DNA of 64,000 nucleotides from a virus, in the IMG/VR virus record IMGVR_UViG_3300029568_000166, positions 6,360 through 70,359 of that record; one strand, written 5' to 3'. The position numbers and the translations under genes are program-made. Positions 3,101 through 52,816 of the stretch are shown piece after piece (within the stretch, counting starts at the first letter, position 1; each line of letters starts with the position of its first letter). The notes under the pieces were generated by a model. It was not told the origin of the DNA and did not search any database. It was given only the letters and a program-made list of their open reading frames with translations.

Positions 3101-6100
3101 CTTCACAAGGTCTTTCTGAAGAACAGATAGCGGATTTAGCCCCAGAATCAGGAAGCATACTAGAGAAGCTGCTCAGTGATATTAGGGGTAATATTCAGAA
3201 CGCAGCAAGAATTAATAGAGGTTTAAAAATTCCTATTCCTGGCACAGCTATGGCTAACGTAGGGGTGCATAAGGCAGATTCTGATGCTATTCTCAAAGCC
3301 TACTCTGATAATGGTTTGAATGAGGAGCAAGGAAACGAATTGCTTGGTAAAATTTTTAAAATCACAAACAGTAAGAATTTTGGTGGGCCAGCAATCACAG
3401 TAAAAGATACACTATTTGCTAATGGCGGTTTTGTTCAAAAATTTATGGCTGGTGGATACAGTAAACCAGCAAGTGATAAGCAGCTAGCTTTCCTGAAAAG
3501 CCTTGTAGACAAGCATGGTGTTCCAGAAGGATTTGAATACCCACCCAAGACATCTGCCCAAGCAAGTGCTCTTATAGACAGAATCAAGAATCCTCCAAAA
3601 CAGGGTCTTGATCTCAATAGTCTCTTTAACGAATACCAGCAAATCTTTGGTGTTGCTCATCCTCAATCAAAGGAAGAACTTGAACAGGAAGAAATTAACG
3701 ATTGGGCACAAAACATAGATAGAACCATAGATAAGTATAATAAGTTTGCGAATGTAATCAAAGAATACTATGGTAAAATAGTTCAACAAGATAGCTGGAA
3801 TGGGAGTTTTTATGCTTTGGGTGGTCCTGCTCCTTCTATGATGAAAAGAGCAGAATTGGATAAGTTTGTACAAGGAGGTGGTTTTGATAGAAAACTTTTG
3901 GAAGAGTTTGCAACGAGAGGAGATTTGGCTTTTGGTAGTACTTTTAATGCTCCAAGGGGCCGAGGAGCAAATAGTTCAGCACTAAGAACTCGCAAGACCT
4001 ATATGCGTGGGTACGCAGACGGAGGCTCAATAGCAGACACGGTTCCTGCACTATTAACTCCTGGTGAGTTTGTTATCAACAAGAAGGCTGCAGCTAAAAT
4101 CGGATCCGCCAAACTTAACAAAATGAATCGTGCCGATAAGATTCAGGGTTTTAACAAGGGCGGGCCAGTAGGTTTTGTTCAGAGATTTGCTGAAGGTGGC
4201 GAGGCGGGTTCCTTAAACAGCCAGATCGCTGTTAGCACAGCAGAAGTTAAGAGTCTTGCCGCCGCACAGGAAGCAGCAGAAAAAGAGTATCTAGGATTAG
4301 CTGCTAGACTCAAGAAGATGGATGATAGTCTTGTAGCAGGAATAGAAGGAAACAAGGCCTATAAAAAAGCTATAGACATAAAAGTCCAACTTGAAAAGAA
4401 ACTTCTTGCCGCAGAAGAGTCAGCACTAACGGTCATGGAAGAGTACCAGAAAGCAGAACAAAAACGAACTCAACTTATTAAGAAAGCCCAAATAGCCAAA
4501 GAAGAGAAAAATAAACAAAGACAATCATCGGGAACACAAGGTACGGTTACAGAAGGACTTGCTAGGCTAGACAAGATTGTTTCTAGTCGAATGGACGCTG
4601 TGACAGCTTCTTTTGCTGTGGCTGCCGAAAATGCCGGATTATCTCTCGAAGAGTTTGCTAGTGATCTTAAAGAAGCAAGCAAAGAACAATTTGTGGCATC
4701 AAAGAAAAAAATAGCCGAGTCAAGACAGTCCCTAAAGACAAATATAATTCAGTCTAGGGCAACAGGCATCGAGGATCCTGCAGCATTTCAAAAGCAAATA
4801 TCCGGTCAACTTAAAGGACTTATTGGCGACGACATAGGAGATAAAGAACTATCAGAGGCAGTAGACGCTATTACCGCCAAAATACAAGAAGGTACAAGTT
4901 CTTTTGATGAAATTGTTAAACAGGTTCCTGCTCTTGCCGAGGCTATGGATTCGACCGGAGATGCTGCTAAAGCTAACGCTAGCGTTCAACAAAAAATTGT
5001 GCAAGAATACGGGGGATTGATCAAACAGGTTCAGCTTAGTGCTCAAGAGCTTGCAGAGGTAGAATGGAGAAGTGGGGGAGGAGAGGAAAGCCTTGGACTT
5101 GTTGGTAAGCTTCTTGATGGCTTAAAGAGCACAGGATTTAGCAAAACAGGAGCTTTTGAATTTAGCCAGGGCAAGTTAGGTCAGACCATTAAGTCTGTAC
5201 AAGATAAGGGTCTTGGGAAAGCTATATTTGACAAGCTTGGAGGAGCCGCTTCTAAGTTATCTCCAAAACTTGGTAGAGTTATTGGTAGTCTTGGTAAATT
5301 TGGCAAAGTTCTAGGTGGATTACCAGGAATTGCTGCTGGGGCAGCATCATTCTTTGCTGATCAATTTTTGCCAGGCTTACTTCAACAAATAGGTATGGCT
5401 AATACAGCAACAGGAGCAGGAATACAAGGTGCTGTTAGCAGTGGCGCTCAAATGGCAAGCATGGGTGCTGCTCTTGGGACTGTTTTATTACCAGGTATAG
5501 GTACAGCCATAGGGGCTTTAGCTGGAGGTATCTACGGAGCAATAACAGGAGGATTTAAAGCTTTCAGAACTAAATCTCTTGAGTTATCCTTAAACAAGCT
5601 GACTGAATCTACAAATAGACTTGATAGCGCTATGGAAGATTTTAGTGAAATACAAAGCACAGAGAATTTGGCTAGAGTACAACAAGAAGCACAAGGCAAT
5701 AAAGAATCTTTAACTTCTTTAGAAGACCAGGCCAGAATAGGCGATTCGCAGGCTGGGTTGCTTAATTGGTTTGGCACAGACGAAATAAACGATTCCGCCT
5801 TGCAAGCATACATTAGTGGTATAGATAGTCTTAACGAAAAATTTGCTAAAATAACTCAGATCAAAAGTTCAGGGCAAAGTCTTGATGAAATAAACAACAA
5901 TATTAAACAGCTTGAGCAAGGTAACTTAAGTGCAAGTTCTGTTCTTAAAACTTCTGGTCAGAGCGTACAAGAATACGCAAGAAGTTTAGCCGAAATAGAG
6001 CTTAGCAACAAATTTGGCGGTGATACCCAAGCGTTTCGAACAGAACTCAACAAACAGTTAGCTTCAGGACAATTAGACGAAAGAGGCATGGAGCTTGCAA

Positions 6101-9100
6101 AGATCGAGCTTCTACAGCTGGAAAGACAAAACCAGCAGCTTAAACTTATGCAGCAAGTAAATCTAGAAGTAGAGTCATTGGTTAGTCAACTACAAAAAGC
6201 AAGAGCTAGTGTTACAAGGTTTGCTGTTGAATTAGAAGCTCAGGAGCAAGCTACACAAAATCAGGTTTCAAATGTTTCTGGAGCAGGAGGAGTTAACCAA
6301 TTCAGAAACGAAGCACTTGAGGTTTTGGAAAATCCTAGAGGTTATACTGATCGAGAGTTCGATGTTGCTGCTAGAAGAACATCTCAAGTTATAGGAGGGG
6401 ACGCAGGAAAACAAGTTGAAGAAGGCTTGAAGGGACAAAGAGTATTAGAACAAGAACTCCCGAAAATACTTCGTAATGTCACAGACATGGACAAAGCTAG
6501 TGAAGCAATAGAGAATCTTGATCTTGGTATCTCTGATAGCCTTGGTAACGAAATCAAGAAAAAGCTTATAGATCAATTAGAACTAAAAGTTGGAGAAGAC
6601 GGAGTAGGAGGAGCGGCTTTTGCAGATCTAGCGGATGATGTGCCAGGACTTACTGCATCAATGGAGATATTTAAAGAAAACAATGAACTTGCCAAAGAGG
6701 CGGTTAAAGCATTCGGTGATGCCGTAAACGCTTCCGCAGAGAGAGCAACCAAATGGGCTGACGCTGTAGATGCAGCTAGAGAAAGAGAGCTAGCGGGAGT
6801 CAAGAAAAGAATAGAAGGAGAAAACGCTATAGCAGATGCCCTTGGACAAAGAATTTCTCTTGAAGAGAAAGCAGGAACTTTCTTTGCAGAATTTAACAGT
6901 CTTAGTGGTCAAAATGCCACAAACATGGGCCAAGTCGATATTCAGTCCATTGTTGATCAACGAAACATAAACGCAGGCAGAATAGACGCTGCTGAAAGAG
7001 CCAGAAATGCAGCGGCTACTTCCGGAGACATAGAAGGCGTAACAGCATTAAATAAACAACTTGCAAGTCTAAAGAAAGAAGACCAAAATCTTGTTAAGTC
7101 TCTTGAGCTAGTAGCAAATAGCAACGACCTTCTGCAAGCTGCACTAAACAAATATCAGGAAAGGATACAACAAGAAGACAAGAAGATAGATTTTGCTGAA
7201 AGGCTCGCAACTGCTGATACTGGAGAACTAGCCAGAATCAATTCGGAAATGACAGCCTTGAATGTTGCTCTGGGTTCTGACGACAAGACACAGAAAAGAT
7301 TTTTCAGTAATGTTGATAATAGAAGAGATGCTCTAGCCGGTCTGAAGAATTTGGACTTCTTGGGATTAGACGGAGCTGAAACAGGACAGATAAGGGCTCA
7401 GACACAGCTTAGTGTCCTAGAAAACACTCCTGGAATGAAAAAATTCTTGGATATGCAGACTAAGGACATCTATGGTAAAGACACTACGCTAAGAGAAATT
7501 CTGGAAAGAAGAGCTAAGACTGGTGAGACACCAGAGACTGAAGCAGCTAGAGCAGCAATAGAACTACAACAAAAGGCTAATGAAAGTTTAGCAGATATAG
7601 ATAACCAAGTAGCTGATATTCTAGCCAGTGATATAAGCGACCCAATTGTAAAAGCAATTCAGGACATGAGAGATAGAATAGCAGGAGCTATTGTAACTAG
7701 CGATAGATCAGGGACAGGTGCTCCACCTGGTTCATCTACTGCCAGTACGACCTCTCCTACCTCTCCTACCTCTCCTACATCTCCTCGTTCTGATGGTTCT
7801 ACTGGTGGTGGTCCTGGGCTTAGAACCCTAGCTTTTGGTGCTTATGCAGCAGATCAGTTTGCTGGTGGTAGAGGTTCAGCCGCATTAAGACAAGCTGCTG
7901 GTGCTGCTTCGAGAGGTTATGGTAGAGCCAGAGCGGGTGGTGCTGGTATACGAGCAAGTCTGGGAAGAGGATTACGGGGTGGAGCGCAAAGCCTAACCAG
8001 AGGAGGAGCAGGCAGAGCGGCAAACGCAGTAGGTAGAAGGTTGCGTAATCTTAGAAGTAGAATACCTACGGCAAATCAAGCGGGACTTAGAGTCGGACAA
8101 TTTGCTGATGACGCTATTGCTAGAATTCCAGGGGCAGGAAGGCGAGCAGGAGAGATGGTTGGCAGAGCGAGAAGAGGCCTAACAAATCTAAGAGGAAGAA
8201 TTCCTACGGCAAGACAGGCAGGCGCAGGAGTCAGGCAAGGAGCGAAACTAGCTAGAGACACAGCAGTTAATACGGTTAGAGCCATCAGAAATAGTAGAAC
8301 AGGAGTGAACGCAGCATCAACACTGGCTAGAGGAGCAGGCGCAGCAAGAAATATTGCTAATGCTGGTAGACTTGCTGGAGGCGCATTAAATGTAGCAAGA
8401 GCTACTCCAGGTATGTTGGCGGCTAATACTGCATTAAGCGGTGTTACAAATGCTATAGAGTTCGCATACGATCCAGCCGCCTATAATGAAAAGATGTTAG
8501 ATAGAGTTCAGGCTGGAATGGATGAGATGTATGCCAAGGGAGAATATCAGTTTACTAGCTTAGGAGGAGCTCTGGATGGGTTAAGCGATCCGATAGGTAA
8601 GATAGTAGAAGGAGGCTACGCTCTTAAGGCCTTAGCGGATGATTATGCTAATCTTGCTCAGGCTGAAGCTCGATCAGAAGCTATGTCTCAAGATCTTTCT
8701 ATAGCTAGGGGGCAAGATGTTGCTTCTGAACTTGGTTTTAGCGGAGACGCAGCAATAAGTGGCTTAGATACAGGTATTCAAGAAAAGATTCAAGAAATAG
8801 CTAGACAAGAATCTAAGCTAAAAGAAATAGAAGCTCTCATAGCTTCTGGAGCAGGAAACGAAAAGGCAGCCGGTTCTATTTTAACAAATTCTCAAATGGC
8901 CGAGAATATTAAGAGAACCATTTCGCAATCAGAATCTGGCCTAAATGCCCTCATAGACGAAGCGGCCACAACACAAGGATGGTTGTGGGATAGTCTTGAT
9001 GAAAGAATGAGACAAGCAATCAAGGCTCAGGTTGGAAGCGCTATGCAACAGCAAAGACAACTGATGCAGCAGAGAGATCAAGACGGAACTAACGCAGCAA

Positions 9101-32271: not shown

Positions 32272-33057
32272 TTATTCATCTCCTATTTCTAGATAGTTTT
32301 CTTTTCCGGTCTTGATTTCCTCTATTGCTACCAAAAGTCTTTGCAGTACGATGTTTGCTCTGCTCTTGTAAAAATCCTTGGTTTGTTTTATCCTGATCAG
32401 CTTTAGCCCTCTTCCTAAGAGCAATCCAGTTTTCTTGTTATCATAGGCTTGCGCTCGCTTCAAAGCAAGTTCTCCCCAAACAGGACTAAAATGGGACGGA
32501 CCATCAACTTCAATAGCGATATTGTCTTCTGGAAGAAATAAATCAATATGCAATTTTGTGTTACTTAATATTTGTTCTTTATGAGGTTCTACTCTATAAC
32601 CTTGTTCTAGTAGTTCAGAATGCAGGAACTTCTCAAGTTTACTTCCTGTTTTGCTCGTATTTCTTACTGCTTGATTCGCTTTATTAAATCTGTCCTGTTT
32701 TTCGTCTTCAGACAACTTTTCCCAATTCTCTCTGGCTATGATGCTTCGGCGCTCTAGTTCGTTGTTGCTCATAGTTTCCCAGGAATTCATAACACTCATG
32801 CCTATTTTTTCTTTAGTTTCTTCTGATCTTTTTGTGCCCTTGGTTGGATGTTTATGCTTTCCTGTTTGGAGAGCAAGCTTTTGTGCTTCGCTTTTGGTGC
32901 GAATTTTTATTCCGGCTTTTTTAGCATCTCTGCGCACCTTATTTGGGTAGGTATCATACATTTCTGCTATTTCCTGAAAACTTCTATTCTCTTCAACATA
33001 GTGTTTGTGCAAAAGACTAGCTTTTTCACTGTCTGAATATTGATTGTAGTTCTGCAT
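32272..33057 (-). CDS. Free-standing DUF559/Vsr-like endonuclease with HTH and NUMOD3-like motifs
   Basis: HIDLFLPEDNIAIEVDGPSH catalytic motif; KRSEETKEKIG NUMOD3-like motif; N-terminal SFQEIAEMY HTH-like segment. Confidence 0.75.
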   Translation of the reverse strand: MQNYNQYSDSEKASLLHKHYVEENRSFQEIAEMYDTYPNKVRRDAKKAGIKIRTKSEAQKLALQTGKHKHPTKGTKRSEETKEKIGMSVMNSWETMSNNELERRSIIARENWEKLSEDEKQDRFNKANQAVRNTSKTGSKLEKFLHSELLEQGYRVEPHKEQILSNTKLHIDLFLPEDNIAIEVDGPSHFSPVWGELALKRAQAYDNKKTGLLLGRGLKLIRIKQTKDFYKSRANIVLQRLLVAIEEIKTGKENYLEIGDE

Positions 33058-36933: not shown

Positions 36934-36990
36934 AAAAATCTCCTTTACTAAAATCCAAAACCAAACCCAGGAACACCCTGGACGTAATCT

Positions 36991-37019
36991 ATTATAGCCG
37001 GTTGGATCGGGTGTGTCAA
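36991..37019 (-). promoter_or_regulatory. Sigma70-type promoter TTGACA-N17-TATAAT for ssb
   Basis: Perfect consensus; the -35 box overlaps the dnaE-C stop codon. Confidence 0.85.
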
Positions 37020-38131
37020 GTCCGAGCGATGTAACTTTTTTCCACGATCAGACTATCCTTGCCTCGGGACCGATTTCCGGCCACGATGATAATATTGCCA
37101 TCAAATAAAATGTTCTTATATTCTCTGTATTGATCTGGAAAGAAAATCACAGACTCAACAGTTCCAGTGGTATCTCTAATAGTGACGAAAGCCATTTCTG
37201 CACCAGGATTTTTACCCTGCTTAGTTTTCACAATACCGATACGATCAATCTCTCCACCCAGAATAATCTTCTCTTTCTTGTCTTCTGTATTGAACTCTTT
37301 GCAAGTGGTATTACACATACTAATGTCGTACATATCAACTTTACCACAAGTAATAGCACAACCCAAAAGAGCATCTTCAGAATCTGCAATCCACTCTGGA
37401 CTATCCTCTAACGAATAGGGAGGCCTCTCAAGACTAGAGATAAGATCAGAAATAATAGCTTTTCTATTCTTATTAGCTTTCCCATTTTCTATCAGATACT
37501 CCAGGCTATCCTTCAGAGTTTCCTGTTTATTTTCTATAACAAACTTTAGTTCTTTCTTGGTGAGACTTGATACAACGCCGAACTCAAACATCATTAGATT
37601 TCTTGTTTTTCTCAGATAGGCCAACGCACCTGACTGCATCAAAGCCTTGGCACCAGTAGAGTTGATGTTAGGCAAAATCTTGAGCAGAACATCCGTCCAC
37701 TCGGCATTGTCTAAATCAAAATCTTCCACAAGTTTTATCAACTTATCAAATACTGATCCTCCAACTCCTTTAATGTCGGTAAGACCGAAATAGACCTTGT
37801 TATTTTTGAGTATAAAGTGACGGTTTAAGTTTCTTATGTCTGGAGGCCGAATGTCTATATTCATCTCTAAAGCGTTCTGAACCAACTCCTTGATCTCCAT
37901 CTGAGGATCAATCTTGTCCTTGGCAAATCTGAGATAACTAGCAAAAAATACTTTTGGGAAATGGGCTTTGGCGAATGCTGAAAGGTAGCCGTTGATAGCA
38001 TACGACACAGAGTGTGAGTTCGATGTTGCTATGCCATTTGCGTAAAAAAGATGTTCTGAACTGTTTACTTCAATGTCTTTTGTGGGTCTTATACCAACTT
38101 TACTAACTCTTCTAACTTTTGCTCCACGCAT
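37016..38131 (-). CDS. dnaE: DNA polymerase III alpha, C-terminal piece (fingers/HhH/OB) preceded by split-intein C fragment
   Basis: IntC ...HLFYANGIATSN is followed by SHSVSY, then YFGLTDIKGVG (HhH) and OB-fold MAFVTIRDTTGTVESVIF. AGGAG RBS present. Confidence 0.9.
   Translation of the reverse strand: MRGAKVRRVSKVGIRPTKDIEVNSSEHLFYANGIATSNSHSVSYAINGYLSAFAKAHFPKVFFASYLRFAKDKIDPQMEIKELVQNALEMNIDIRPPDIRNLNRHFILKNNKVYFGLTDIKGVGGSVFDKLIKLVEDFDLDNAEWTDVLLKILPNINSTGAKALMQSGALAYLRKTRNLMMFEFGVVSSLTKKELKFVIENKQETLKDSLEYLIENGKANKNRKAIISDLISSLERPPYSLEDSPEWIADSEDALLGCAITCGKVDMYDISMCNTTCKEFNTEDKKEKIILGGEIDRIGIVKTKQGKNPGAEMAFVTIRDTTGTVESVIFFPDQYREYKNILFDGNIIIVAGNRSRGKDSLIVEKSYIART
38018..38131 (-). mobile_element. 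Split intein C-fragment (IntC, 38 aa)
   Basis: MRGAKVRRVSKVGIRPTKDIEVNSSEHLFYANGIATSN: block F (DIEV...HLFYANG), terminal Asn, +1 Ser. Confidence 0.92.
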
Positions 38132-38979
38132 TCTGTGTCTCCTAAAATGTCGCTTTCCCAGAACCTTATTAGTTTGTATTTATTTTCTTCGCAAAACTTG
38201 TTCTTTTTGATGTCTCTGTAATAGTTTATTTTTTGCGACTTTGTTTTTGGCCCGTTTGGATAGATTTTTGGGTTACTGTGCCAGTAGTCGCCATCTACTT
38301 CTATTAGTATGTTAGCGTCTGTACAACAAAAGTCAAACGCCCAAGAACCGAGAACATACTCTTTTTTGTATCGTATTTTTTTCTTTTTGAGTATTCTTTC
38401 CATTGTTCTTGATGGTAGAGTATCTATCTGCGGAAAGTCGCCGTTTTTTATTCTTTCTAAAGTTTTTTGTCTCATGAGTTCTTTCGACTCTTCAGAATGC
38501 TTGTGTCCTGTATGCCCATGAACTTTTCTTTTTTTAGCAGAGTTGCTCTGTTTGAGTTTTGTTTCGTCGCTGATGTCTCTGCCAGTTTGTATCTCTGACA
38601 TTTTTTTGCCGTAGTCAGAGTTGGTTTTATTCACACCAAGGTTCCACGGCTTCTTTTTATACATTGGGTTTCCTGGTCCTTTTCTTTCTGTTTTTGCTTT
38701 TTTAGACCATTCAACTATTCCGGTGTTTCTCCCACAAGCAAACTTACTCCATCTAAAAACAGTTCCTTTTTTTACTACTCTCAACGCTTTTTGGCATTGC
38801 CCACAAGGGCAAACCGGACCCTGGCCAAAGTATTCTTCTTTAGTCATGTTATGTTGTTTTTTTAGATGGGATAAAAAATAGTCAGTTTTATAACAGCCAA
38901 GTTTCTTCTCTTCTTGACTTATTTCTTCTATTGTTTTTCCGCAGTGTCGGCAAACCGAAAAGTCCAGTGTTGTATCCAT
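38089..38979 (-). CDS. Free-standing Vsr-like/DUF559 (EDxHD-type) homing endonuclease with NUMOD3-like repeats
   Basis: FDFCCTDANILIEVDGDYWH catalytic motif; GHKHSEESKELM and DISDETKLKQS NUMOD3-like segments; N-terminal Cys/His clusters. Start taken at ATG 38979 (AGGAG RBS); 39009 is the alternative. Confidence 0.85.
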   Translation of the reverse strand: MDTTLDFSVCRHCGKTIEEISQEEKKLGCYKTDYFLSHLKKQHNMTKEEYFGQGPVCPCGQCQKALRVVKKGTVFRWSKFACGRNTGIVEWSKKAKTERKGPGNPMYKKKPWNLGVNKTNSDYGKKMSEIQTGRDISDETKLKQSNSAKKRKVHGHTGHKHSEESKELMRQKTLERIKNGDFPQIDTLPSRTMERILKKKKIRYKKEYVLGSWAFDFCCTDANILIEVDGDYWHSNPKIYPNGPKTKSQKINYYRDIKKNKFCEENKYKLIRFWESDILGDTECVEQKLEELVKLV

Positions 38980-39011
38980 TTGTATGTCTCCTATTGGAAT
39001 AGATGTCATAC

Positions 39012-39899
39012 TTATTCATACACCACTATCTCCATTTCTTTTGCTATTATTTCCCACAAAGGATACTTCTTCCCGTCTGTTGTCAAAAACTTATGGTCTA
39101 ATGTACATGTAATAGTAGCACCACCATCCAGTTCTATTTCAACAACCTCCTTTTCTCCTGTATCAATCACATCCAACACTTCAATAAACTCATCTCCATT
39201 GGCCGTGGGTCCAAGAACCTTGTCTCCAACCTTTATTTCTTCCATTGTTTTTAACCCGTCTGGAGTTTCTACAACAGTCGATACATCTAAACATTTATTG
39301 AAAGAATACCTTTGACTCTTCTCAATCCAGCCGAAGATTTCTTCTGCTTCTTCTTTGGTTACGATCTTGAGTTTAGTAGCGCCTTTGATAAACTTCTTCT
39401 TGAGTTTAGCCATCTCTTCTGGTTTCTTTTTACCAATAGCTTTTCTTAAGTTGTCTGCTTCTTGCAGATCAAAGCCGCCGATAACTTTAGCAATCTCCAT
39501 CGCCTGTTCCTGATATACCAACTCACCGAATGTAGAGTTGAGAATAGGTTCTAGTGCAGGATGGAAATAGCTGACGGACTCTTCTCCGTTCTTGCGGTCA
39601 ATGTAATGGTTTGTCACGCTCTTACCGTCTCGCACAGCCTCAAGACAACCTGGGCGAACGATAGCGATGAGAGCGGATAACTGTTCTATGTTCTCTGGCT
39701 TGAGACGCTTGGCGGTCTGTTTACCAAGCCTACTCTCTAACTGAAACACACCTTTTGTATTTCCGTCACTAATAAGATCCCAAGTTCTTTGACATTCAAG
39801 ACTGATGTTTTCTATTCTTGGTTGAAAATCAATCTTTGTAACGCCATTTTCTTCAGTAATAGGAAACTTACAACCGCAGGCATATGTAAAGTATTTCAT
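39012..39899 (-). CDS. dnaE: DNA polymerase III alpha, middle piece, ending in split-intein N fragment
   Basis: GVFQLES, ALIAIVRPG, LVYQEQ, ADNLRKAIGKKK, YSFNK, then CLDVST... intein. Confidence 0.92.
   Translation of the reverse strand: MKYFTYACGCKFPITEENGVTKIDFQPRIENISLECQRTWDLISDGNTKGVFQLESRLGKQTAKRLKPENIEQLSALIAIVRPGCLEAVRDGKSVTNHYIDRKNGEESVSYFHPALEPILNSTFGELVYQEQAMEIAKVIGGFDLQEADNLRKAIGKKKPEEMAKLKKKFIKGATKLKIVTKEEAEEIFGWIEKSQRYSFNKCLDVSTVVETPDGLKTMEEIKVGDKVLGPTANGDEFIEVLDVIDTGEKEVVEIELDGGATITCTLDHKFLTTDGKKYPLWEIIAKEMEIVVYE
39015..39293 (-). mobile_element. Split intein N-fragment (IntN, 93 aa)
   Basis: Starts CLDVSTVVETPDGLKTMEEIKVGDKV (block A) and contains ITCTLDHKF (block B TxxH); ends at the stop without blocks F/G. 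Confidence 0.93.
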
Positions 39900-40081
39900 T
39901 CCTTGTTTTCCAGTTTTGGCATATGCTGATCTCCTCCATCAACAATCTCAACAACATTTATAGAAATAGCATGTTTTCCAACAACAGTTTGCTCAACTTC
40001 GCGATTATATTTATCTAAGATTTTTTGCATTGTCTGGCAAAGTTTGTTGCAGTCCATATTTGCTGTTATAGGTATTATCAT
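39896..40081 (-). CDS. Hypothetical protein (61 aa)
   Basis: ATGA overlaps at both ends (with the thyX stop and with the dnaE-middle start). Confidence 0.6.
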   Translation of the reverse strand: MIIPITANMDCNKLCQTMQKILDKYNREVEQTVVGKHAISINVVEIVDGGDQHMPKLENKE

Positions 40082-40716
40082 TTGATTAGCCCAGATCTTT
40101 TCCATGTGTAAATAGTATGACGGAATGGCTGTCCTTCTATGCCATCTACTAAGTCTAGCATAGTTTGGGCAATATCTCTAATTTCTCTTTGTGCGTGTTC
40201 GCTATTTCTAAGTTTTTGAAAATTTGCAAAACTTCGCATATTGAAACTTACGTCTGCTTGTATCTGACTATTATATGACTTAAAGAACCTGGCTGATTCT
40301 TTTGCTCTTTTTCGTCCAACAGTACCTTCTATATCCGCTAGACATTCATGATAAAGGGAATTGCTTAATGCAGTAAACTCTTCTAATTTGATCTGCCATT
40401 TTATTGGCCAGTCGTTAGGAATATATGCTTTGTCTTCCTTAAGCTCTTTATAGCGAGCAGACTCGGCATTAAGACTACTAATACGATGCTTAAGTAAATG
40501 AATATGGCTGGCGATATCAGTATCAACAAGAAAATGCACCATAGCCTTCTCAAACGGTGTTTCATGTCCATTCTCCCATAGCATCTTAATGAGTTTAGGA
40601 ATCCTTTCTTTCTTTTCGTCCGTCAAATCTCGTGATGTGCTTGTCCATGCTGAACAGGCTATGGTTTCGTCCGAGCCATAATAACCCAATAGTTCTACTT
40701 TGTTTTTCATCCTCAT
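40078..40716 (-). CDS. thyX: FAD-dependent thymidylate synthase
   Basis: GHETPFE, KHRISSLNAESAR (ThyX motif, R->K at the first position), NMRSFANFQKLR...HAQREIR. Confidence 0.93.
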   Translation of the reverse strand: MRMKNKVELLGYYGSDETIACSAWTSTSRDLTDEKKERIPKLIKMLWENGHETPFEKAMVHFLVDTDIASHIHLLKHRISSLNAESARYKELKEDKAYIPNDWPIKWQIKLEEFTALSNSLYHECLADIEGTVGRKRAKESARFFKSYNSQIQADVSFNMRSFANFQKLRNSEHAQREIRDIAQTMLDLVDGIEGQPFRHTIYTWKRSGLIK

Positions 40717-40726
40717 CCTCTGTTCC

Positions 40727-40770
40727 TAAAAGAAAAGGCCAGCGCCCTACCCTATAGTAGAGCGCCAGCC
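40727..40770 (-). terminator. Intrinsic terminator after DUF1559 gene
   Basis: - strand GGCTGGCGCTCTAC-TATAGG-GTAGGGCGCTGGCC followed by TTTTCTTTT. Confidence 0.75.
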
Positions 40771-40782
40771 CTGTATTGTCAA
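40754..40782 (-). promoter_or_regulatory. Sigma70-type promoter TTGACA-N17-TACTAT for thyX operon
   Basis: Perfect -35 box, 17-nt spacer; the -10 box lies inside the terminator hairpin. Confidence 0.7.
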
Positions 40783-40785
40783 GTC

Positions 40786-41769
40786 CTATTCCTGAACGAT
40801 TTCGCCACCACTTCTGGTAATCATACCCGCAAATACTCTAAGATCAACATCTTCGTTGATATATGATGTTGAACCATCTGTTCTAACAACATTCATTCCA
40901 CCAGGATGCCAACTTAGCGCCTCTCCATTATTTGTAGCATTAAATGGTAGCCCCATGTTCCTTGCAGCACCCTTATCGCCGTTTTGATCAATCGGATGCA
41001 ACTTAAATGGTCCAAGACTATCTGCCCATCCAAGACACTGATTGATAGCATCTGGTACAGCAATCTTCTGTGTGGTCTTAATCCACGTTGGGCGACTAGC
41101 ACATTCTACAATAAGAAGTGTCTTGCTTGTTCCATCACGAAACTGACCCATTCTTGTAATCTGATCCTTAATTAATGCGCCATCTGCTTCTGGCCCCTTG
41201 TTGGCGTATGGATCTGGATCAAGAACCTTATTCTTTACGCCCGTAAATACCTCATAGTCTGTGCGACCAAATGGTGAGGGTGGACTAAGTGCTGGAGCAG
41301 TTGAGTCTGAGTCTCTGCTTGGTCCATCAGGATAACTCGTCCATTCTGATCCATCGTACACATTAGATGGGCACTGAAAAACCTTAACCTGCTGTTGTGC
41401 AATAAAAAGATTTGGGCCTTCCCACCAATGAAGATTCTTATCATAGGCGTCTGCAAGCGCTGATTCTTCCATGTATGGTAGAAGGTCTACTCTCCACGAT
41501 CTTTCTGTTCTTGCCTTATTATCTGATGGGGCTATTGGCGTAACACTTGGATCAATAGTATCAATTGTCCAACAGGCTGCCGGAAACTTTTGAGTGCCAT
41601 TTTCAATGTTGTGTGCGGCCAATCCAAACTGTCTCATGTTGCTCATGCAATTTGCTCGTCTTGCTGCTTCCCGTGCAGATTGTACTGCTGGAAGGAGAAG
41701 ACCAACTAGAACACCAATAATAGCAATAACAACAAGAAGTTCTACCAGAGTAAATCCTTTTCTTTTCAT
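40786..41769 (-). CDS. DUF1559 family prepilin-type N-terminal cleavage/methylation protein (planctomycete type, 327 aa)
   Basis: MKRKG-FTLVELLVVIAIIGVLVGLLLPAVQSAREAARRANCMSNMRQFGLA and C-terminal HPGGMNVVRTDGS (H-X9-DG motif). Confidence 0.95.
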   Translation of the reverse strand: MKRKGFTLVELLVVIAIIGVLVGLLLPAVQSAREAARRANCMSNMRQFGLAAHNIENGTQKFPAACWTIDTIDPSVTPIAPSDNKARTERSWRVDLLPYMEESALADAYDKNLHWWEGPNLFIAQQQVKVFQCPSNVYDGSEWTSYPDGPSRDSDSTAPALSPPSPFGRTDYEVFTGVKNKVLDPDPYANKGPEADGALIKDQITRMGQFRDGTSKTLLIVECASRPTWIKTTQKIAVPDAINQCLGWADSLGPFKLHPIDQNGDKGAARNMGLPFNATNNGEALSWHPGGMNVVRTDGSTSYINEDVDLRVFAGMITRSGGEIVQE

Positions 41770-41815
41770 CTTTTTTTCCTTTTTGGTAGGGTAAAATTCG
41801 TAGCCTGTAGACCTT

Positions 41816-41844
41816 ATTATACCCAACCGGCAGGAAGAGAGCAA
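41816..41844 (-). promoter_or_regulatory. Sigma70-type promoter TTGCTC-N17-TATAAT for DUF1559 gene
   Basis: Perfect -10 box, partial -35 box, 17-nt spacer, intergenic. Confidence 0.6.
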
Positions 41845-41866
41845 AGGGTTTTATGTTAGAATTGCG

Positions 41867-43141
41867 TTAAGACATGATTTCGTTGATTGGTTTTCCACCA
41901 TCCACGATTTTCACAGGGCGATCGCCAGGAGCCATAAGAGCCTTATTATAATCAATACCTAAAAGGTCATAGATAGTAGCAGCCCAATGATGAACCTCTA
42001 CTGGATTATCTGCTGGTTCTGAACCTGTTGCATCGCTCTTGCCATAGAATAGACCTCTTTTAATGCCACCCCCAGCCATAACAGTGCTATACACTTTAGG
42101 CCAATGATCTCTACCGCTAGTAGGATTGATCTTTGGAGTTCTTCCAAATTCTGTTCCCACAATAACGAGAGTAGAGTCAAGCATTCCTCTGTCGTCAAGG
42201 TCATTGATTAGTGCTCCAAAGGCTCGGTCAAATTGGGGTAAGTTTCTTTCCATTTGTCGGGCAATACCATCGTGATGATCCCACCCTCCGTAAGTCATCG
42301 TCACAAAGCGGGTTCCTGCTTCAACCAATCTGCGAGAAAGCAGCATTCTCATTCCTGCGGCGTTCTTGCCATACCGCTCCTTGGTTTGTTCATCCTCTTT
42401 GTTTAGGTCAAACGCTTCAATAGCCTCGGTTGAACTCATGAGATCAAAAGCGTTTTCATAAAAAGTATCAAGTGACGTAAGCTTATCTGAAGACTGTTCG
42501 CTTCCGAATTTGTCATTGACAATCTCAAGCATCTTCTTTCTTTGATCAAATCTTTGAAGGCTGATGTTGTCTGGTAGTCGCAAGTCTCTAACTCTGAAAT
42601 TTGGGCTTTCAGGATTACTACCGAGGCTAAAAGAGCTATAAGAGGAAGAAAGATAGCCAGTACCAGCAAATTCATTAGCAACTTGCGGAACTGAGATGTA
42701 AGGTGGTAAATTATTTCGCACCCCCAATTCATGCGACATTACAGCACCGAAACTGGGATACTGTAAGGCTGGGCTCGGTTTGTAGCCTGTCATCATGTTG
42801 TTGACGCCACGCTCATGGGCAGTTTCAGAGTGGGTCATGGACCGAATCACTGTAATTTTATCAGAAACACTTGCTGAATGGGGAAGGTATTGGCTAAATA
42901 CTTCACCGGGAATTTTGGTTTTCACGGTTCCTAATGGTCCGCGATATTCTACAGGAGCGAGAGGTTTTGGTCCAAAACTTTCCTGATGGCTCATTCCTCC
43001 CGGTAGGAAGATATAGATAACACTTTGTGCCTTGGCATTAGGATTGAGAGCATCTTCAGCCTTCAACTTTAGATAGTTAGGCAGAGTAAGACCACCCAAT
43101 CCTGCAACGCTTCCGACAAGTAGTTTTCTTCTATTTATCAT
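41867..43141 (-). CDS. DUF1501 family protein with Tat-like signal (planctomycete type)
   Basis: MINRRKLL twin-Arg leader, IYIFLPGGMSHQESF, GWDHH, LDSTLVIVGTEFGRTPKIN...GRDHWP, MAGGGIKRG. Confidence 0.93.
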   Translation of the reverse strand: MINRRKLLVGSVAGLGGLTLPNYLKLKAEDALNPNAKAQSVIYIFLPGGMSHQESFGPKPLAPVEYRGPLGTVKTKIPGEVFSQYLPHSASVSDKITVIRSMTHSETAHERGVNNMMTGYKPSPALQYPSFGAVMSHELGVRNNLPPYISVPQVANEFAGTGYLSSSYSSFSLGSNPESPNFRVRDLRLPDNISLQRFDQRKKMLEIVNDKFGSEQSSDKLTSLDTFYENAFDLMSSTEAIEAFDLNKEDEQTKERYGKNAAGMRMLLSRRLVEAGTRFVTMTYGGWDHHDGIARQMERNLPQFDRAFGALINDLDDRGMLDSTLVIVGTEFGRTPKINPTSGRDHWPKVYSTVMAGGGIKRGLFYGKSDATGSEPADNPVEVHHWAATIYDLLGIDYNKALMAPGDRPVKIVDGGKPINEIMS

Positions 43142-43824
43142 TTTTTGAACGAGCCTTTAAACTTGACTTTTGATGCCATGTTTCTGTGCAGTTTCAGAAA
43201 TCGGATCATGATTTCTGCGGTATCCTCCACATCCTTAATAGCATCGTGAGCACCATCTTTACTAATACCAAAATACTCTCTCAAGTTATCTAGTGAATAA
43301 CTCTTGAGTTCGTTGTTGTGGCTAAACCAGTAGAACACCAGATTGATCACATCAACTACATCTCTAGGATAGAATACACTACTTGTGCCTTCTTTATTCA
43401 CATTCTTGTTCTTCACACTGAGTCTATTCACAATGGGAAGATCAAACCTATAGATATTATACCCCGCAGCGATAGGAGCAGAAAATTGGCTCTTTCTGCT
43501 GGTCCTGCTGTGGTATTTATCCAGATAATCAACAAACATCTTCCAACCAACACTCTGCTTGGGGTATTTTGTCCATTCTGCATAAACATCTTCTTTAGCG
43601 CAACCCTTAACCCTAGCATGAAAATCCAGAATATCGGTCTTGTACTCATACTCTGGGTCTTTTTCCATTACCTCTGGCTTAAAGTTGCACTGAAACTGTG
43701 AATTAGGGATGATCTCCAAATTGATAGGATCAACCATTACAGCAGCAAGTTGTACTGGACTACATTCTGCTGGATTGCTGCCATCTGTCTCAAAATCAAA
43801 TACGCAAATTTTGTTATAGTTCAT
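43138..43824 (-). CDS. DEDDh 3'-5' exonuclease (Pol III epsilon-like)
   Basis: ExoI VFDFETDG, ExoII AGYNIYRFDL, ExoIII HDAIKDV. Confidence 0.9.
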   Translation of the reverse strand: MNYNKICVFDFETDGSNPAECSPVQLAAVMVDPINLEIIPNSQFQCNFKPEVMEKDPEYEYKTDILDFHARVKGCAKEDVYAEWTKYPKQSVGWKMFVDYLDKYHSRTSRKSQFSAPIAAGYNIYRFDLPIVNRLSVKNKNVNKEGTSSVFYPRDVVDVINLVFYWFSHNNELKSYSLDNLREYFGISKDGAHDAIKDVEDTAEIMIRFLKLHRNMASKVKFKGSFKK

Positions 43825-43829
43825 TATTT

Positions 43830-44012
43830 TTATTCCTCAACTTGTACTTGTTCACCTTCTCTAAGGCCTATCTTGTTTTTTGGATTATTGGTTTCTGTTG
43901 CGTTAACAAACTTGCAGCAACTAATTTTAACTTTACTGGTTTTAGTAAAAGTTTTGTCCTTATAAACAAAAGAATCTCCAACACTAAGACTCCCATAAGT
44001 AACATTTTTCAT
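43830..44012 (-). CDS. Hypothetical protein (60 aa)
   Basis: ATGA-coupled to the dnaE-N stop. Confidence 0.6.
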   Translation of the reverse strand: MKNVTYGSLSVGDSFVYKDKTFTKTSKVKISCCKFVNATETNNPKNKIGLREGEQVQVEE

Positions 44013-45868
44013 TTTTCTACTCCTTGTCTAAGTATTTCTGAAATATTCATAACCTTATCTAACATAGCGATGCCAAGGATATCAAATTTGATAACTCCAA
44101 TAGTTTCCAAATCCTGCATTTCCATACCCGCAATCATTTGTTTGTTTCTTGTGTCGTAGACCATAGGGCAGGTTTCGGCCAAGGCCTCGCTACTGATCGC
44201 AATTCCAGCCGCATGTTTGCTCTGGTTTGACTTGGTTCCTTCTAATCTAATAGCCTGCTCAAAGCGTTTGGCAAGTGGACCCTGAATTTTTCCATCATCG
44301 TCCAGATGGCACCACTCCTTGAGTTTATCTCCAACATTCTCAAGAGCCCAACGAATAATACTCGCTTCTCCGGTGTCTTCTCGCATTTGTTGTAGTTCAT
44401 CAGCGATTTTCGCTTCGTCTGGAATATTCTTGGTAATCTTATTCATCTCTTCAAAACTAATGTTTCCATAAGCTCTGAACACATCTTTTAGTGCTCCGCG
44501 ACCTTTGATCGTGTTGAAAGTGATCATTTGAGAGACTTTATCTGCTCCGTACCTGTTTTTGATATATTCGATGATCTCTTCTCTTTTATCAATAGGAACA
44601 TCCACATCAATATCTGGCATAGAAATATGCTCAGCAGTATTACGACCAGCATTGTAAAATCTATCAAATAGAAGGCTATATTTAATAGGATCAATACTAG
44701 TAATACCAATAAGATAGGAGACCAAGCATCCTGCAGCAGATCCTCTTCCTGGTCCTGGCAGCCATTTTTCTTCTCTGACATGGTTTACAATGTCCTGAAC
44801 TATAAGGAAATAACTAGACAGATCCGCACCCTGTAATACATCTAATTCGTATTTAACACGATCAGTATAAGTGTTGTATAGATTTTTGTCCACTTTATCG
44901 TGTATTTTTTCTCTCCACCCATTACGGCAGAGTTGACGAAGATATTCATCTGGATTTTCGCCGCCAGGACATTGGAAAGGAGGAAGTTTTGGCTTGCTCG
45001 CAATATCAAAATCCTCAATCAAACTGTTGACCAGATTAGTATTCTCAATGTGTTCTTCTTTGTGGATTTCCCTTATCTCTTCTTGAGAAAGAATATGAAA
45101 GTTGTTGGAACTAAAGAAGCATTCAACCGGAACCTTGTCTCCAACGCTGAGTTTGCGGGTGATTTCCGGCATAGTAGTTTTGAGGTTGTTGCAGAGCAGG
45201 ATTCTCTGATCGTCTGCGTCTTCACGACGAGCATAATGAGCGTCTGGGGTACAGATAACCTTTACACCCATTTTGTGAGCGAGAGATTCTATAGCGTCTG
45301 TAAGAGGTTTTTGTATGGGATTATTCTCTAGATCCATCAACTGCGCCTCAAGAAACACATGATCTTTGCCGAACATTTCAACGAGTTGGGCAACCAGATC
45401 TTCTCCGCTGCCAGCTACACGATCCTCCTCAACCATTTTGTTAGCCAGATTACTACCAAGATGCCCTGTAATACAGATAAGGTCTTCACAGAACGGCGCA
45501 ATCCTGTCCAGATCAAGTCGTGGTTTATGATAAAAATATTCTGGTTTATTTGACTCTGATACGAGCTTGATCAGATGCTGCCAACCATTATAGTTTTTGG
45601 CCAGAACCAGCATGTGAGAATTGGTGTTATCTTTCTCTTTTATTGATGCGTCTTTTTCACAAATATATAGCTCGCAACCCAGAATAGGTTTGATATTATT
45701 TTTCCTCATAGTCTGATGAAACTGCACATGACCAGCGATATTTCCGTGGTCTGTCAGGGCACAAGCGGAAGTCTCAATTTCTAGGCATCTTTTAGCAATT
45801 TGTTTAGGTTGAGATAGTCCGTCTAACAGACTATAATGACTATGACAATGTAATGGTATATATTGCAT
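44009..45868 (-). CDS. dnaE: DNA polymerase III alpha, N-terminal piece (PHP domain plus palm)
   Basis: HCHSHYSLLDG, ALTDHG, GCE, TPDAHY (PHP); GPGRGSAAGCLVSY, LLFDRF, MPDIDVD, HAAG, KFDILG. Ends soon after the third catalytic Asp. Confidence 0.95.
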   Translation of the reverse strand: MQYIPLHCHSHYSLLDGLSQPKQIAKRCLEIETSACALTDHGNIAGHVQFHQTMRKNNIKPILGCELYICEKDASIKEKDNTNSHMLVLAKNYNGWQHLIKLVSESNKPEYFYHKPRLDLDRIAPFCEDLICITGHLGSNLANKMVEEDRVAGSGEDLVAQLVEMFGKDHVFLEAQLMDLENNPIQKPLTDAIESLAHKMGVKVICTPDAHYARREDADDQRILLCNNLKTTMPEITRKLSVGDKVPVECFFSSNNFHILSQEEIREIHKEEHIENTNLVNSLIEDFDIASKPKLPPFQCPGGENPDEYLRQLCRNGWREKIHDKVDKNLYNTYTDRVKYELDVLQGADLSSYFLIVQDIVNHVREEKWLPGPGRGSAAGCLVSYLIGITSIDPIKYSLLFDRFYNAGRNTAEHISMPDIDVDVPIDKREEIIEYIKNRYGADKVSQMITFNTIKGRGALKDVFRAYGNISFEEMNKITKNIPDEAKIADELQQMREDTGEASIIRWALENVGDKLKEWCHLDDDGKIQGPLAKRFEQAIRLEGTKSNQSKHAAGIAISSEALAETCPMVYDTRNKQMIAGMEMQDLETIGVIKFDILGIAMLDKVMNISEILRQGVEK

Positions 45869-51406: not shown

Positions 51407-51800
51407 GCAGAATACTCCTCCATTCCTCATCCGATCCATCAAAAGGAAAAACTATATGCGTTATACCGTTCTGTTCGCACCATTCCTTCTTCTCTACGTC
51501 TCTCTTCTTTGCTTTAACAAAACTTACCATGTTTGTGTGGTAGAAAGGAATAAATTTGTAGTGCTGTTCTCCGTGAACTTCAACGCAAATCTTCTTGAGA
51601 GGTAAGTAAAAATCCATGTATAAGGTCACACCTTTTTTGAGAGGCATGGACACCTCTTCGAGTATTTGTAGAGTCGGATACTCCTCTTTTAGAAGTGCTC
51701 GTGCTCTCAAATGCAGGTCAGACTTGTTGGCTGTGCCATAAGCTACGTTGCCAGTAAGTAACCAGTTAAGATTATTACCATCTAGATCTTTTATTAACAT
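51396..51800 (-). CDS. Small DUF559/Vsr-like nuclease (134 aa)
   Basis: MDFYLPLKKICVEVHGEQH, RDVEKKEWCEQNGI. Confidence 0.75.
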   Translation of the reverse strand: MLIKDLDGNNLNWLLTGNVAYGTANKSDLHLRARALLKEEYPTLQILEEVSMPLKKGVTLYMDFYLPLKKICVEVHGEQHYKFIPFYHTNMVSFVKAKKRDVEKKEWCEQNGITHIVFPFDGSDEEWRSILHEQ

Positions 51801-52816
51801 TTTACCCCCATCATTTCCTTGACTTGTTTTAATAAATCTTCGTAAACTTCTGGGTTTTTAGCAACATACTGCTTTACTTTCTCAACACCCTGAAACTTTG
51901 GTTTGTCTTCCAAATGCTCAAGCGTAAACCATGCTCCAGCCTTCTTGATGATACCAAAGTCAGTAGCAAGATTCACAACTTCTGTTTCCTTGTCAATCCC
52001 AATGCCATAACGAATGTAACTTGTCATACTCGCTCCAGGCGCACCAAGAGCAGAGCATACAACCTGCCACTCAACTTCTTGACCAACAGGAGTAGTATCA
52101 CTACCAATCGTCCAAGGACTAAACTTCTTTGCTCTCATCTTGATATCAGTCTGATAAGCAATAGCCTGTCCACTCTTTTCCTTAAACTCAGCACCATAGC
52201 CAGTAGGATTACCCATCAAATGAGTAATACCAATAACAATATTTTTATTAACAGGAATAACATTAGCCACCTTTCTGCAAAACTTAGCAAGCAGTTTGGC
52301 TCCGTCCGCTCTCTGCATCTTGTTCATATCACTTGTAATCTCTGCTTCCGTACAGAGAGCCGAATAACTATCAATAATCACCACACTACCAGGAACTTCA
52401 TTAATCAGTTTCTCAGCAATCTGCAGATACTCTTCAGCATGAAGAATCTTGCCTTGTTGACTTCCGATCACATGAAACTTGTCAGGGTTTAGATGAGGTA
52501 TTCCCTCAAGGTCACGCTTTTTCAGCCTACCCTCGATGTTCAGGTAATACACCTCACGCCCGTCCTTGAAACTGTCATAGCCATACTTTGGGTCTTGTGC
52601 TGTTGCAGCAAGATAGAGTGACGTGGTAGTTTTGCCACACTTTGGCTGTCCTGTGAGAACAACAAAACTTCCTTCTGGAACTCCTCCGTTCAATAGAATA
52701 TCTATTACCGGACTTACTGGAACGATCACACTCTTGGTATCAATAATGTTATTACCGCTAAGGATAATTTTGTCACCAAAAGTTTTTGTGATGTCTTTCT
52801 CTATTGCGCTACTCAT
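51794..52816 (-). CDS. recA: RecA/UvsX-like recombinase
   Basis: GQPKCGKTT, VIIDSYSAL, SGQAIAYQ, IIKKAGAWF. Confidence 0.9.
   Translation of the reverse strand: MSSAIEKDITKTFGDKIILSGNNIIDTKSVIVPVSPVIDILLNGGVPEGSFVVLTGQPKCGKTTTSLYLAATAQDPKYGYDSFKDGREVYYLNIEGRLKKRDLEGIPHLNPDKFHVIGSQQGKILHAEEYLQIAEKLINEVPGSVVIIDSYSALCTEAEITSDMNKMQRADGAKLLAKFCRKVANVIPVNKNIVIGITHLMGNPTGYGAEFKEKSGQAIAYQTDIKMRAKKFSPWTIGSDTTPVGQEVEWQVVCSALGAPGASMTSYIRYGIGIDKETEVVNLATDFGIIKKAGAWFTLEHLEDKPKFQGVEKVKQYVAKNPEVYEDLLKQVKEMMGVKC

Follow-up and report, generated by a model that had tools for sequence, protein, structure and literature searches.

We report a fractured dnaE gene in a 64,000-nucleotide (nt) stretch of DNA from an uncultured phage (the window), which covers positions 6,360 to 70,359 of IMG/VR virus record IMGVR_UViG_3300029568_000166, a record of 74,283 bp that is estimated to be 54% complete. 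Between positions 37016 and 39899 on the minus strand, three closely packed open reading frames (ORFs), each in a different frame, encode a fingers piece of DnaE joined to the N-terminal half of a split intein (IntN), a putative Vsr-like homing endonuclease, and the C-terminal half-intein (IntC) joined to the remainder of the DnaE chain. We consider it highly likely that IntN, the endonuclease gene of the EDxHD family and IntC constitute a mobile cassette inserted in the motif YSFNK/SH (the slash marks the splice point), whose flanking DnaE pieces would be united by trans-splicing and which would spread by homing. An endonuclease gene placed between half-inteins in the fingers part of dnaE corresponds to the layout known as a fractured gene, and judging from its sequence this arrangement is real and probably functional. 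A first-pass annotation had proposed the same layout, in which a naturally split intein fractures dnaE and a Vsr-like homing endonuclease is encoded by a free-standing gene. This core reading is supported by the analysis presented here, and the ORFs and their translations agree with the coordinates, lengths and junction residues it had given for the N-piece and IntN, the endonuclease, and IntC and the C-piece.

The splice junction and the split intein

The nearest homologue of the C-piece in a collection of 5.8 billion proteins was P0005, an intein-less protein of 535 amino acids (aa) that is 95% identical and reads through the junction without a gap as ...RYSFNKSHSVSY... (also ...EKSQRYSFNKSHSVSYAINGY...). 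The N-extein is 96% identical in amino-acid sequence to residues 1-202 of this protein, and the C-extein is 95% identical to residues 203-535. At the DNA level, the 606 nt and 1002 nt of extein sequence aligned without gaps to the 1608-nt intein-less gene of locus L095, with identical residues at the junction. Because an intein-less allele of 95% identity is gapless at FNK/SH, the splice junction is fixed, and the gapless alignment to the L095 gene means that a known uninterrupted gene is recovered when IntN, the endonuclease gene and IntC are removed. The earlier claim that splicing would restore a conserved YSFNKSH motif is borne out in this respect, since excision in silico yields a sequence collinear with intein-less P0005 and L095.

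Both half-inteins carry the expected sequence blocks. The N-terminal nucleophile, Cys1, directly follows ...YSFNK (C-L-D-V), and Cys1 or Ser1 occupies the same column in relatives, while block B reads T64-L-D-H67, in which T64 and H67 are invariant among 11 sequences. The 38 residues of IntC end in ...DIEVNSSEHLFYANGIATSN and are followed by SHSVSYAING...; block F/G takes the form DIEV...EHLFYANGIATSN/S, with a terminal Asn38 and then Ser+1. IntC is conserved in 10 other C-pieces, where S37, N38 and the +1 Ser are conserved or invariant. All residues of class-1 splicing, namely Cys1, T64, H67, IntC His27, Asn38 and Ser+1, are present and conserved. Among solved inteins, a phmmer search of the PDB with IntN returned the cyanobacterial DnaE intein 7qil (E = 5e-11) and gp41-1 (6qaz; 1.8e-9), and IntC matched the IntC of gp41-1 (E = 0.007). 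A profile of the IntN family ranked cyanobacterial DnaE inteins best among solved structures (5.5e-14), with gp41-1 just behind (1.1e-11).

The association of the two halves was also modelled, using IntN and IntC extended by 13 and 22 extein residues, respectively. The predicted complex scored an ipSAE of 0.74, compared to 0.00 for the best of three controls; of 78 solved complexes, 51 reached 0.74, as did 2 of 108 mismatched pairs. Contacts agreed between runs to at least 86%, and the pLDDT of the partners was at least 66. The predicted docking shows a likeness to split-intein complexes that have already been solved, rather than binding as such.

Comparison with L088, an 80-kb Logan contig that carries the same cassette, provided a measure of selection. 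IntN, the endonuclease and IntC are 81%, 72% and 89% identical to their counterparts there in amino-acid sequence, with proportions of synonymous differences (pS) of 0.62, 0.59 and 0.37 and ratios of nonsynonymous to synonymous change (dN/dS) of 0.11, 0.17 and 0.13, respectively. The N-extein (72% identity, pS 0.85) and the C-extein (55% identity, pS 0.77) gave no computable dN/dS in this comparison; against P0005, their dN/dS was 0.03 and 0.05. Purifying selection acts on the intein halves and on the endonuclease. These values bear on the idea that the half-inteins do not splice and serve as a mere non-covalent clamp for the DnaE pieces (compare the intein-less split NrdA of phage Aeh1). Such a clamp would be compatible with the penultimate residue of the intein, which is Ser and not the usual His both here and in every relative at FNK/SH, and with the fact that splicing in this phage is a prediction. 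The efficient Npu DnaE intein also has a penultimate Ser. We regard the clamp as very improbable, given that the catalytic positions (Cys1 or Ser1, TxxH, the block F His, the terminal Asn and Ser+1) are conserved in more than 10 relatives, that dN/dS is low on both halves, and that the intein blocks are full-length and do not resemble a relic.

The same cassette with a Vsr-like endonuclease was found in at least five other metagenomic phage contigs (L088, L089, L090, L091/L092 and L093), which stem from independent data: besides the Logan contig L088, L090 comes from JGI, L093 from an NCBI metagenome and L089 from ENA. The homologues obtained from NCBI proved to be recent metagenome assemblies and not GOS scaffolds. 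The fractured layout, with N-part, free-standing endonuclease ORF and C-part on one strand, recurs in L088, L090 and L093, and the endonuclease gene of L089 is interrupted by the end of the contig. In the window, the 3' end of the endonuclease gene overlaps the IntC ORF by 43 nt (38089-38131), and the corresponding overlap is 43 nt in L088 and 37 nt in L090. Given that the window derives from one metagenomic contig, it might be supposed that a contiguous large intein was split by assembly or sequencing errors, or that the halves are joined at the RNA level by way of an endonuclease-bearing intron. Either artefact is hardly credible, however, as the arrangement of three ORFs, including their stops, ribosome-binding sites and an overlap of 37-43 nt, occurs in at least five independent contigs from four sources (JGI, ENA, Logan and NCBI), the three ORFs lie in three frames, conserved HINT blocks flank the endonuclease gene, and Rfam detected no intron in the region. 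The two halves are separate ORFs, each with its own stop, start and ribosome-binding site.

Some observations weigh against splicing as the explanation for this locus. Pfam HINT matches on the half-intein fell below the gathering cut-offs, and a search of sequencing runs returned lagoon metagenomes only as weak DNA matches (share 0.10-0.13) and no RNA data. In addition, splicing, cleavage by the endonuclease and homing are predictions drawn from sequence.

The endonuclease and probable movement of the cassette

The product of the middle ORF is a putative enzyme of the EDxHD (Vsr-like) homing endonuclease family. It matched PF04480 (DUF559) at 34.0 bits, above the Pfam cut-off of 20.6, as well as REase_MTES_1575, and its match to I-Bth0305I (3r3p), at E = 0.0096 when searched as a single sequence, reached 4.3e-6 when a profile of the family was used. 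Homologues of about 300 aa number more than 190. The core FDF ... IEVDGDYxH ... RxWE is invariant in 20 of these homologues, as are D216, E227, D229, D231, H234, R272, W274 and E275 (numbering of the 296-aa form); these residues were placed on the published EDxHD motif through the alignment to 3r3p and not through a structure. The shorter, 296-aa form is the probable product, because the second Met of the ORF is the homologue of the start Met in relatives and an AGGAGA lies 7 nt upstream of the ATG at 38979. The N-terminal region contains conserved Cys/His clusters and HGHTG-KHSEESK-like repeats; Pfam NUMOD profiles gave no match on the window endonuclease, and PF07460 is recorded on several homologues.

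An inverted repeat surrounds the ribosome-binding site of the endonuclease gene. Its GTGTAT and CATAC arms are invariant in 6 loci, with the 5' arm (GTGTAT) in differing codon phases between loci, and a hairpin with a GUAUG/CAUAC stem formed in all 5 loci that were folded. The folding-energy z score was -3.0 for an 86-nt segment of the window and ranged from -0.6 to -2.7 in relatives. As a conserved hairpin over a ribosome-binding site, this element probably limits translation of the endonuclease. Less favorable to a structured element are the z score of only -0.1 for a 57-nt segment of the window, the absence of covariation support for the invariant arms, and the failure of RNAalifold to return a consensus structure for the endonuclease 5' region.

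Relatives of this phage carry a variety of alleles at FNK/SH. In the 80 nearest IMG/VR loci, the site was empty in 77 and split in 3. About 30 IMG/VR loci that matched from query residue 4 had appeared to be IntC carriers, but were rejected, since their sites are empty and the matches reflect over-extension of the alignments into the N-extein. A Ser1 split intein with a free-standing LAGLIDADG gene was present in the three split IMG/VR loci and in ENA contigs L004-L007. This gene, of about 300 aa (PF14528, 1.9e-9), occupies the place of the Vsr-like gene in L004-L007, L064 and L074 (about 4100-5100 or 5109-6011). At L036:4511-4969 the LAGLIDADG ORF is truncated to 152 aa; at L096:245-634 the halves are fused into a one-piece Ser1 mini-intein of 130 aa at FNK/SH; and in L093 a Ser1 intein is paired with a Vsr-like endonuclease. 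Empty, contiguous-intein and split alleles are thereby shown to coexist at FNK/SH among relatives, so that one clade displays at one site the empty state, a contiguous 130-aa mini-intein, and split inteins with an EDxHD gene, a LAGLIDADG gene or a decayed LAGLIDADG gene. A search of cultured phages returned no close relative, although contiguous inteins at FNK/SH did turn up.

The comparison with L088 shows less divergence in the cassette than in the host gene (pS 0.37-0.62 vs 0.77-0.85), and because the site is also empty in most relatives, the cassette looks mobile. A further local signal came from the comparison with L095, in which a junction patch of 82 nt contains 31 synonymous mismatches, compared to 176 in the 1526 nt elsewhere (Fisher p = 3e-9). 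The patch (window 38018-38077 and 39294-39315, minus strand, against L095:4730-4811) involves no amino-acid change, and the allele is otherwise 87% identical. Such a patch could be the trace of a co-conversion tract or of target-site escape by the empty allele; the second of these, which could explain it in place of co-conversion, detracts from its value as evidence for homing. Switches between TCN and AGY codons for Ser had been considered as proof of co-conversion but were dropped, both codon families being present in empty and occupied alleles across the clade, and the junction evidence retained is the local excess of synonymous differences only. Taken together, the sequence comparisons point to movement of the cassette by homing between diverged dnaE genes.

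It is conceivable that the intein splices while the endonuclease has decayed or is kept for another role, in which case the cassette would at present be passed on by vertical inheritance alone. Decay does occur in this system, as the truncated LAGLIDADG ORF of L036 indicates, and cleavage activity is predicted here. We nevertheless hold loss of homing to be decidedly unlikely, as the window gene is of full length, retains all of the residues that are invariant in 20 homologues and has a dN/dS of 0.17, the cassette is less diverged than its host gene in the comparison with L088, and a relative of 95% identity has an empty site.

Under the preferred reading, that of a mobile cassette whose host protein is repaired by trans-splicing, expression would begin with co-transcription of thyX, a small 69-aa ORF, the N-piece, the endonuclease gene and the C-piece, from about 40780 to 36965-36983. 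Co-transcription is probable because a promoter-like site lies at 40782-40754 (minus strand) and is followed by no terminator-like site until 36983-36965; on the minus strand, a consensus scan, the only method applied, found none between 40735 and 36983. The N-piece (fingers and IntN) and the C-piece (IntC and HhH-OB) would be translated separately, and the half-inteins would dock as a HINT fold that performs class-1 protein trans-splicing, in which an N-S acyl shift at Cys1 would be followed by transesterification to the Ser+1 hydroxyl, cyclization of Asn38 and an O-N shift. The predicted product is a 535-aa fingers-HhH-OB chain with a native ...FNK-SH... bond, which would form a non-covalent assembly with the PHP-palm chain from its separate gene and with the neighboring epsilon-like exonuclease. 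The endonuclease, for its part, would cleave dnaE alleles that lack the intein, near the FNK/SH codons, in relatives infecting the same cell, and recombinational repair would copy the whole cassette into the cut allele.

Organization of dnaE and neighboring genes

The break within the fingers part is not the only division of DnaE in this phage. In essentially all relatives that were fetched, the PHP-palm and fingers portions are encoded by two genes with no intein at the break, in the order PHP-palm (about 615 aa), a 60-aa ORF, an RNase T-like exonuclease and the fingers gene. In the window, the interval 39012-45868 (minus strand) also contains genes for DUF1501, DUF1559 (with a prepilin N_methyl motif) and ThyX and the 69-aa ORF, between the exonuclease and the fingers piece. 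Neither a family A or B polymerase nor a second dnaE palm domain was found in the record, and replication of the phage probably depends on trans-splicing, as far as its gene content indicates. As the record is only about 54% complete, another polymerase is possible, which would relieve this dependence.

Two further intein sites were noted in dnaE of the clade, across the loci L089 (3972-7344), L014, L044, L055, L061, L062 and L068 (about 1590-1900), P0022, and L023, L026, L043 and L055. The first, GPGRG/C, follows residue 376 of piece 1, in the palm; the L089 intein at this site is itself fractured, so that dnaE is distributed over at least five ORFs in that phage. The second, RPG/CLEA, lies in the fingers, and the intein of P0022 at this site has an HNH-type domain.

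Two other endonuclease-like ORFs were observed in the window. One of 261 aa (32272-33057, minus strand), with weak matches to both NUMOD3 and REase_MTES_1575, is also free-standing and lies inside a block of glycosyltransferase genes with no adjoining intein. The other is a small ORF (51450-51620, minus strand) with a weak match (E = 2e-4) of the Vsr-like profile in the region of the core motif and no Pfam match; it adjoins a recA-like gene (51794-52816).

Table 1. Features of the fractured dnaE locus, in window positions
Feature	Positions	Strand	Description
dnaE N-piece ORF	39012-39899	-	295 aa; fingers N-extein and IntN, TAA stop
dnaE N-extein	39294-39899	-	202 aa, ends ...EKSQRYSFNK; fingers domain PF17657, E = 4.4e-48
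IntN	39012-39293 including TAA stop (coding 39015-39293)	-	93 aa, starts CLDVST; Cys1; block B T64-x-x-H67
Inverted repeat GTGTAT ... CATAC	38982-39023	-	Predicted hairpin around the endonuclease ribosome-binding site AGGAGA (38987-38992)
Putative Vsr-like (EDxHD) endonuclease ORF	38089-39009	-	306 aa from ATG 39009
Endonuclease gene, likely true start	38089-38979	-	296 aa from ATG 38979
dnaE C-piece ORF	37016-38131	-	371 aa; IntC and C-extein
IntC	38018-38131	-	38 aa, ends ...NGIATSN; DIEV, His27, Ser37-Asn38; own ATG, AGGAGA 6 nt upstream
dnaE C-extein	37016-38017	-	333 aa; Ser+1, SHSVSYAING..., then HhH and OB; PF14579, PF01336
Terminator-like hairpin	36965-36983	-	Just 3' of the C-piece; consensus scan only
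dnaE piece 1 (PHP and palm)	44009-45868	-	619 aa; PF02811, PF07733; no intein at this break

Comparison with known systems

Among characterized split inteins, gp41-1 offers a close parallel, with Cys1 and Ser+1, an IntN of about 88-93 aa and an IntC of about 37-38 aa, similar blocks A and F/G, and an origin in a fractured gene. It differs in its host, which is the gp41 helicase, and in having a penultimate His where the window intein has Ser. The second half of the window IntN is nearer to cyanobacterial DnaE inteins than to gp41-1, and about half of its last 50 residues are identical to those of cyanobacterial split DnaE inteins. The latter end in Ser-Asn, as does the window intein, and classically have their halves encoded at unlinked chromosomal loci with no endonuclease.

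The Ssp and Npu DnaE inteins share with the window intein the host protein, the conserved motif and the split point, as well as a homologous splicing domain. They differ in the insertion site, which in the window is RYSFNK/SH with Ser+1, four residues downstream of the wild-type Npu junction AEY/CFNK with Cys+1 (PMC3759424); the first-pass annotation had correctly placed the cyanobacterial site four residues upstream and assigned it Cys+1. It had also called the window intein independently derived, a description that holds for the splitting event and the site but not for the splicing domain, which is homologous to those of cyanobacterial DnaE inteins and gp41-1. On the strength of the closest similarity among solved structures, the same split point, a shared DnaE motif with sites four codons apart and a common Ser-Asn ending, one might go further and propose that the phage FNK/SH inteins and the cyanobacterial split DnaE inteins are close relatives. 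If true, the classic cyanobacterial split intein would have arisen from a source population of fractured dnaE cassettes in phages. The series of alleles in the phage clade suggests in addition that endonuclease families swap at a fixed split point and that fracture itself may be reversible. We offer this wider reading tentatively and regard it as rather doubtful.

The endonuclease resembles I-Bth0305I (3r3p), the prototype with which the EDxHD family of homing endonucleases was defined (Taylor et al. 2011, PMC3239194), in its C-terminal Vsr-like nuclease domain with an acidic and His core and possibly in a separate N-terminal DNA-binding region. Unlike I-Bth0305I, which belongs to a group I intron in recA, the window gene is free-standing between intein halves, and its N-terminal region bears Cys/His clusters. 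It would add to the family an EDxHD endonuclease with a well-defined, predicted natural target.

The same insertion point, YSFNK/C...N/SH, with Cys1 and Ser+1, is occupied by contiguous mini-inteins in gp103 of phage Grayson (MH153812) and in gut phage MT835601. These mini-inteins, of 151 aa and 142 aa, respectively, are in one piece, have no endonuclease gene and are distant in sequence from the window intein. That of Grayson is unannotated in its GenBank record, and the record of MT835601 is wholly unannotated. In the Rhodococcus phage Grayson (L001, MH153812; 62069-65801), DnaE is encoded by a pair of genes, gp102 (303 aa) and gp103 (942 aa), and the mini-intein of gp103 reads YSFNK/C...HN/SH.

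These comparisons define what the locus contributes. It represents, as judged from its genes, a context-rich natural case of a replicative polymerase that would need post-translational stitching, and the clade to which it belongs provides a natural series for how homing endonucleases break genes. As a Cys1/Ser+1 split intein of 93 + 38 aa that is akin to gp41-1 and Npu DnaE, the pair of half-inteins is also a candidate for protein ligation. Literature searches on the FNKSH motif and on phage Pol III split inteins with free-standing endonucleases returned nothing beyond the systems compared here, and one candidate precedent, PMC12707363, was rejected because it deals with PolB split inteins.

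The arrangement is not a first. Fractured genes were defined by Dassa, London, Stoddard, Schueler-Furman and Pietrokovski (2009, NAR 37:2560, PMC2677866), and DnaE is among the eight host enzymes named in that paper. Three fractured DnaE loci (DnaE-1, -2 and -3) are described there with integration points unlike the cyanobacterial one, which bears out the earlier statement that this layout was known from metagenomic phage loci; with the arrangement, DnaE included, published in 2009, current understanding is left unchanged. As in those loci, a split intein breaks dnaE in the window, the endonuclease gene lies between the halves at one locus, and the site is not the cyanobacterial one. The likeness extends to DnaE-2, which is described with a Vsr-like endonuclease of about 315 aa and a modelled catalytic domain at residues 196-315; the catalytic domain of the window enzyme, also Vsr-like, likewise begins at about residue 196. 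The paper further reports overlaps of 6-69 bp between the endonuclease 3' end and the IntC ORF in 15 loci, and hairpins at the endonuclease 5' end formed from two conserved complementary motifs; an overlap is found in the window as well, and a 5' hairpin is predicted there. DnaE-1, -2 and -3 were compared by description, and FNK/SH may be one of their sites. In contrast with those loci, the fractured dnaE reported here lies on a 74-kb phage record that provides its full context, including a separate PHP-palm gene.

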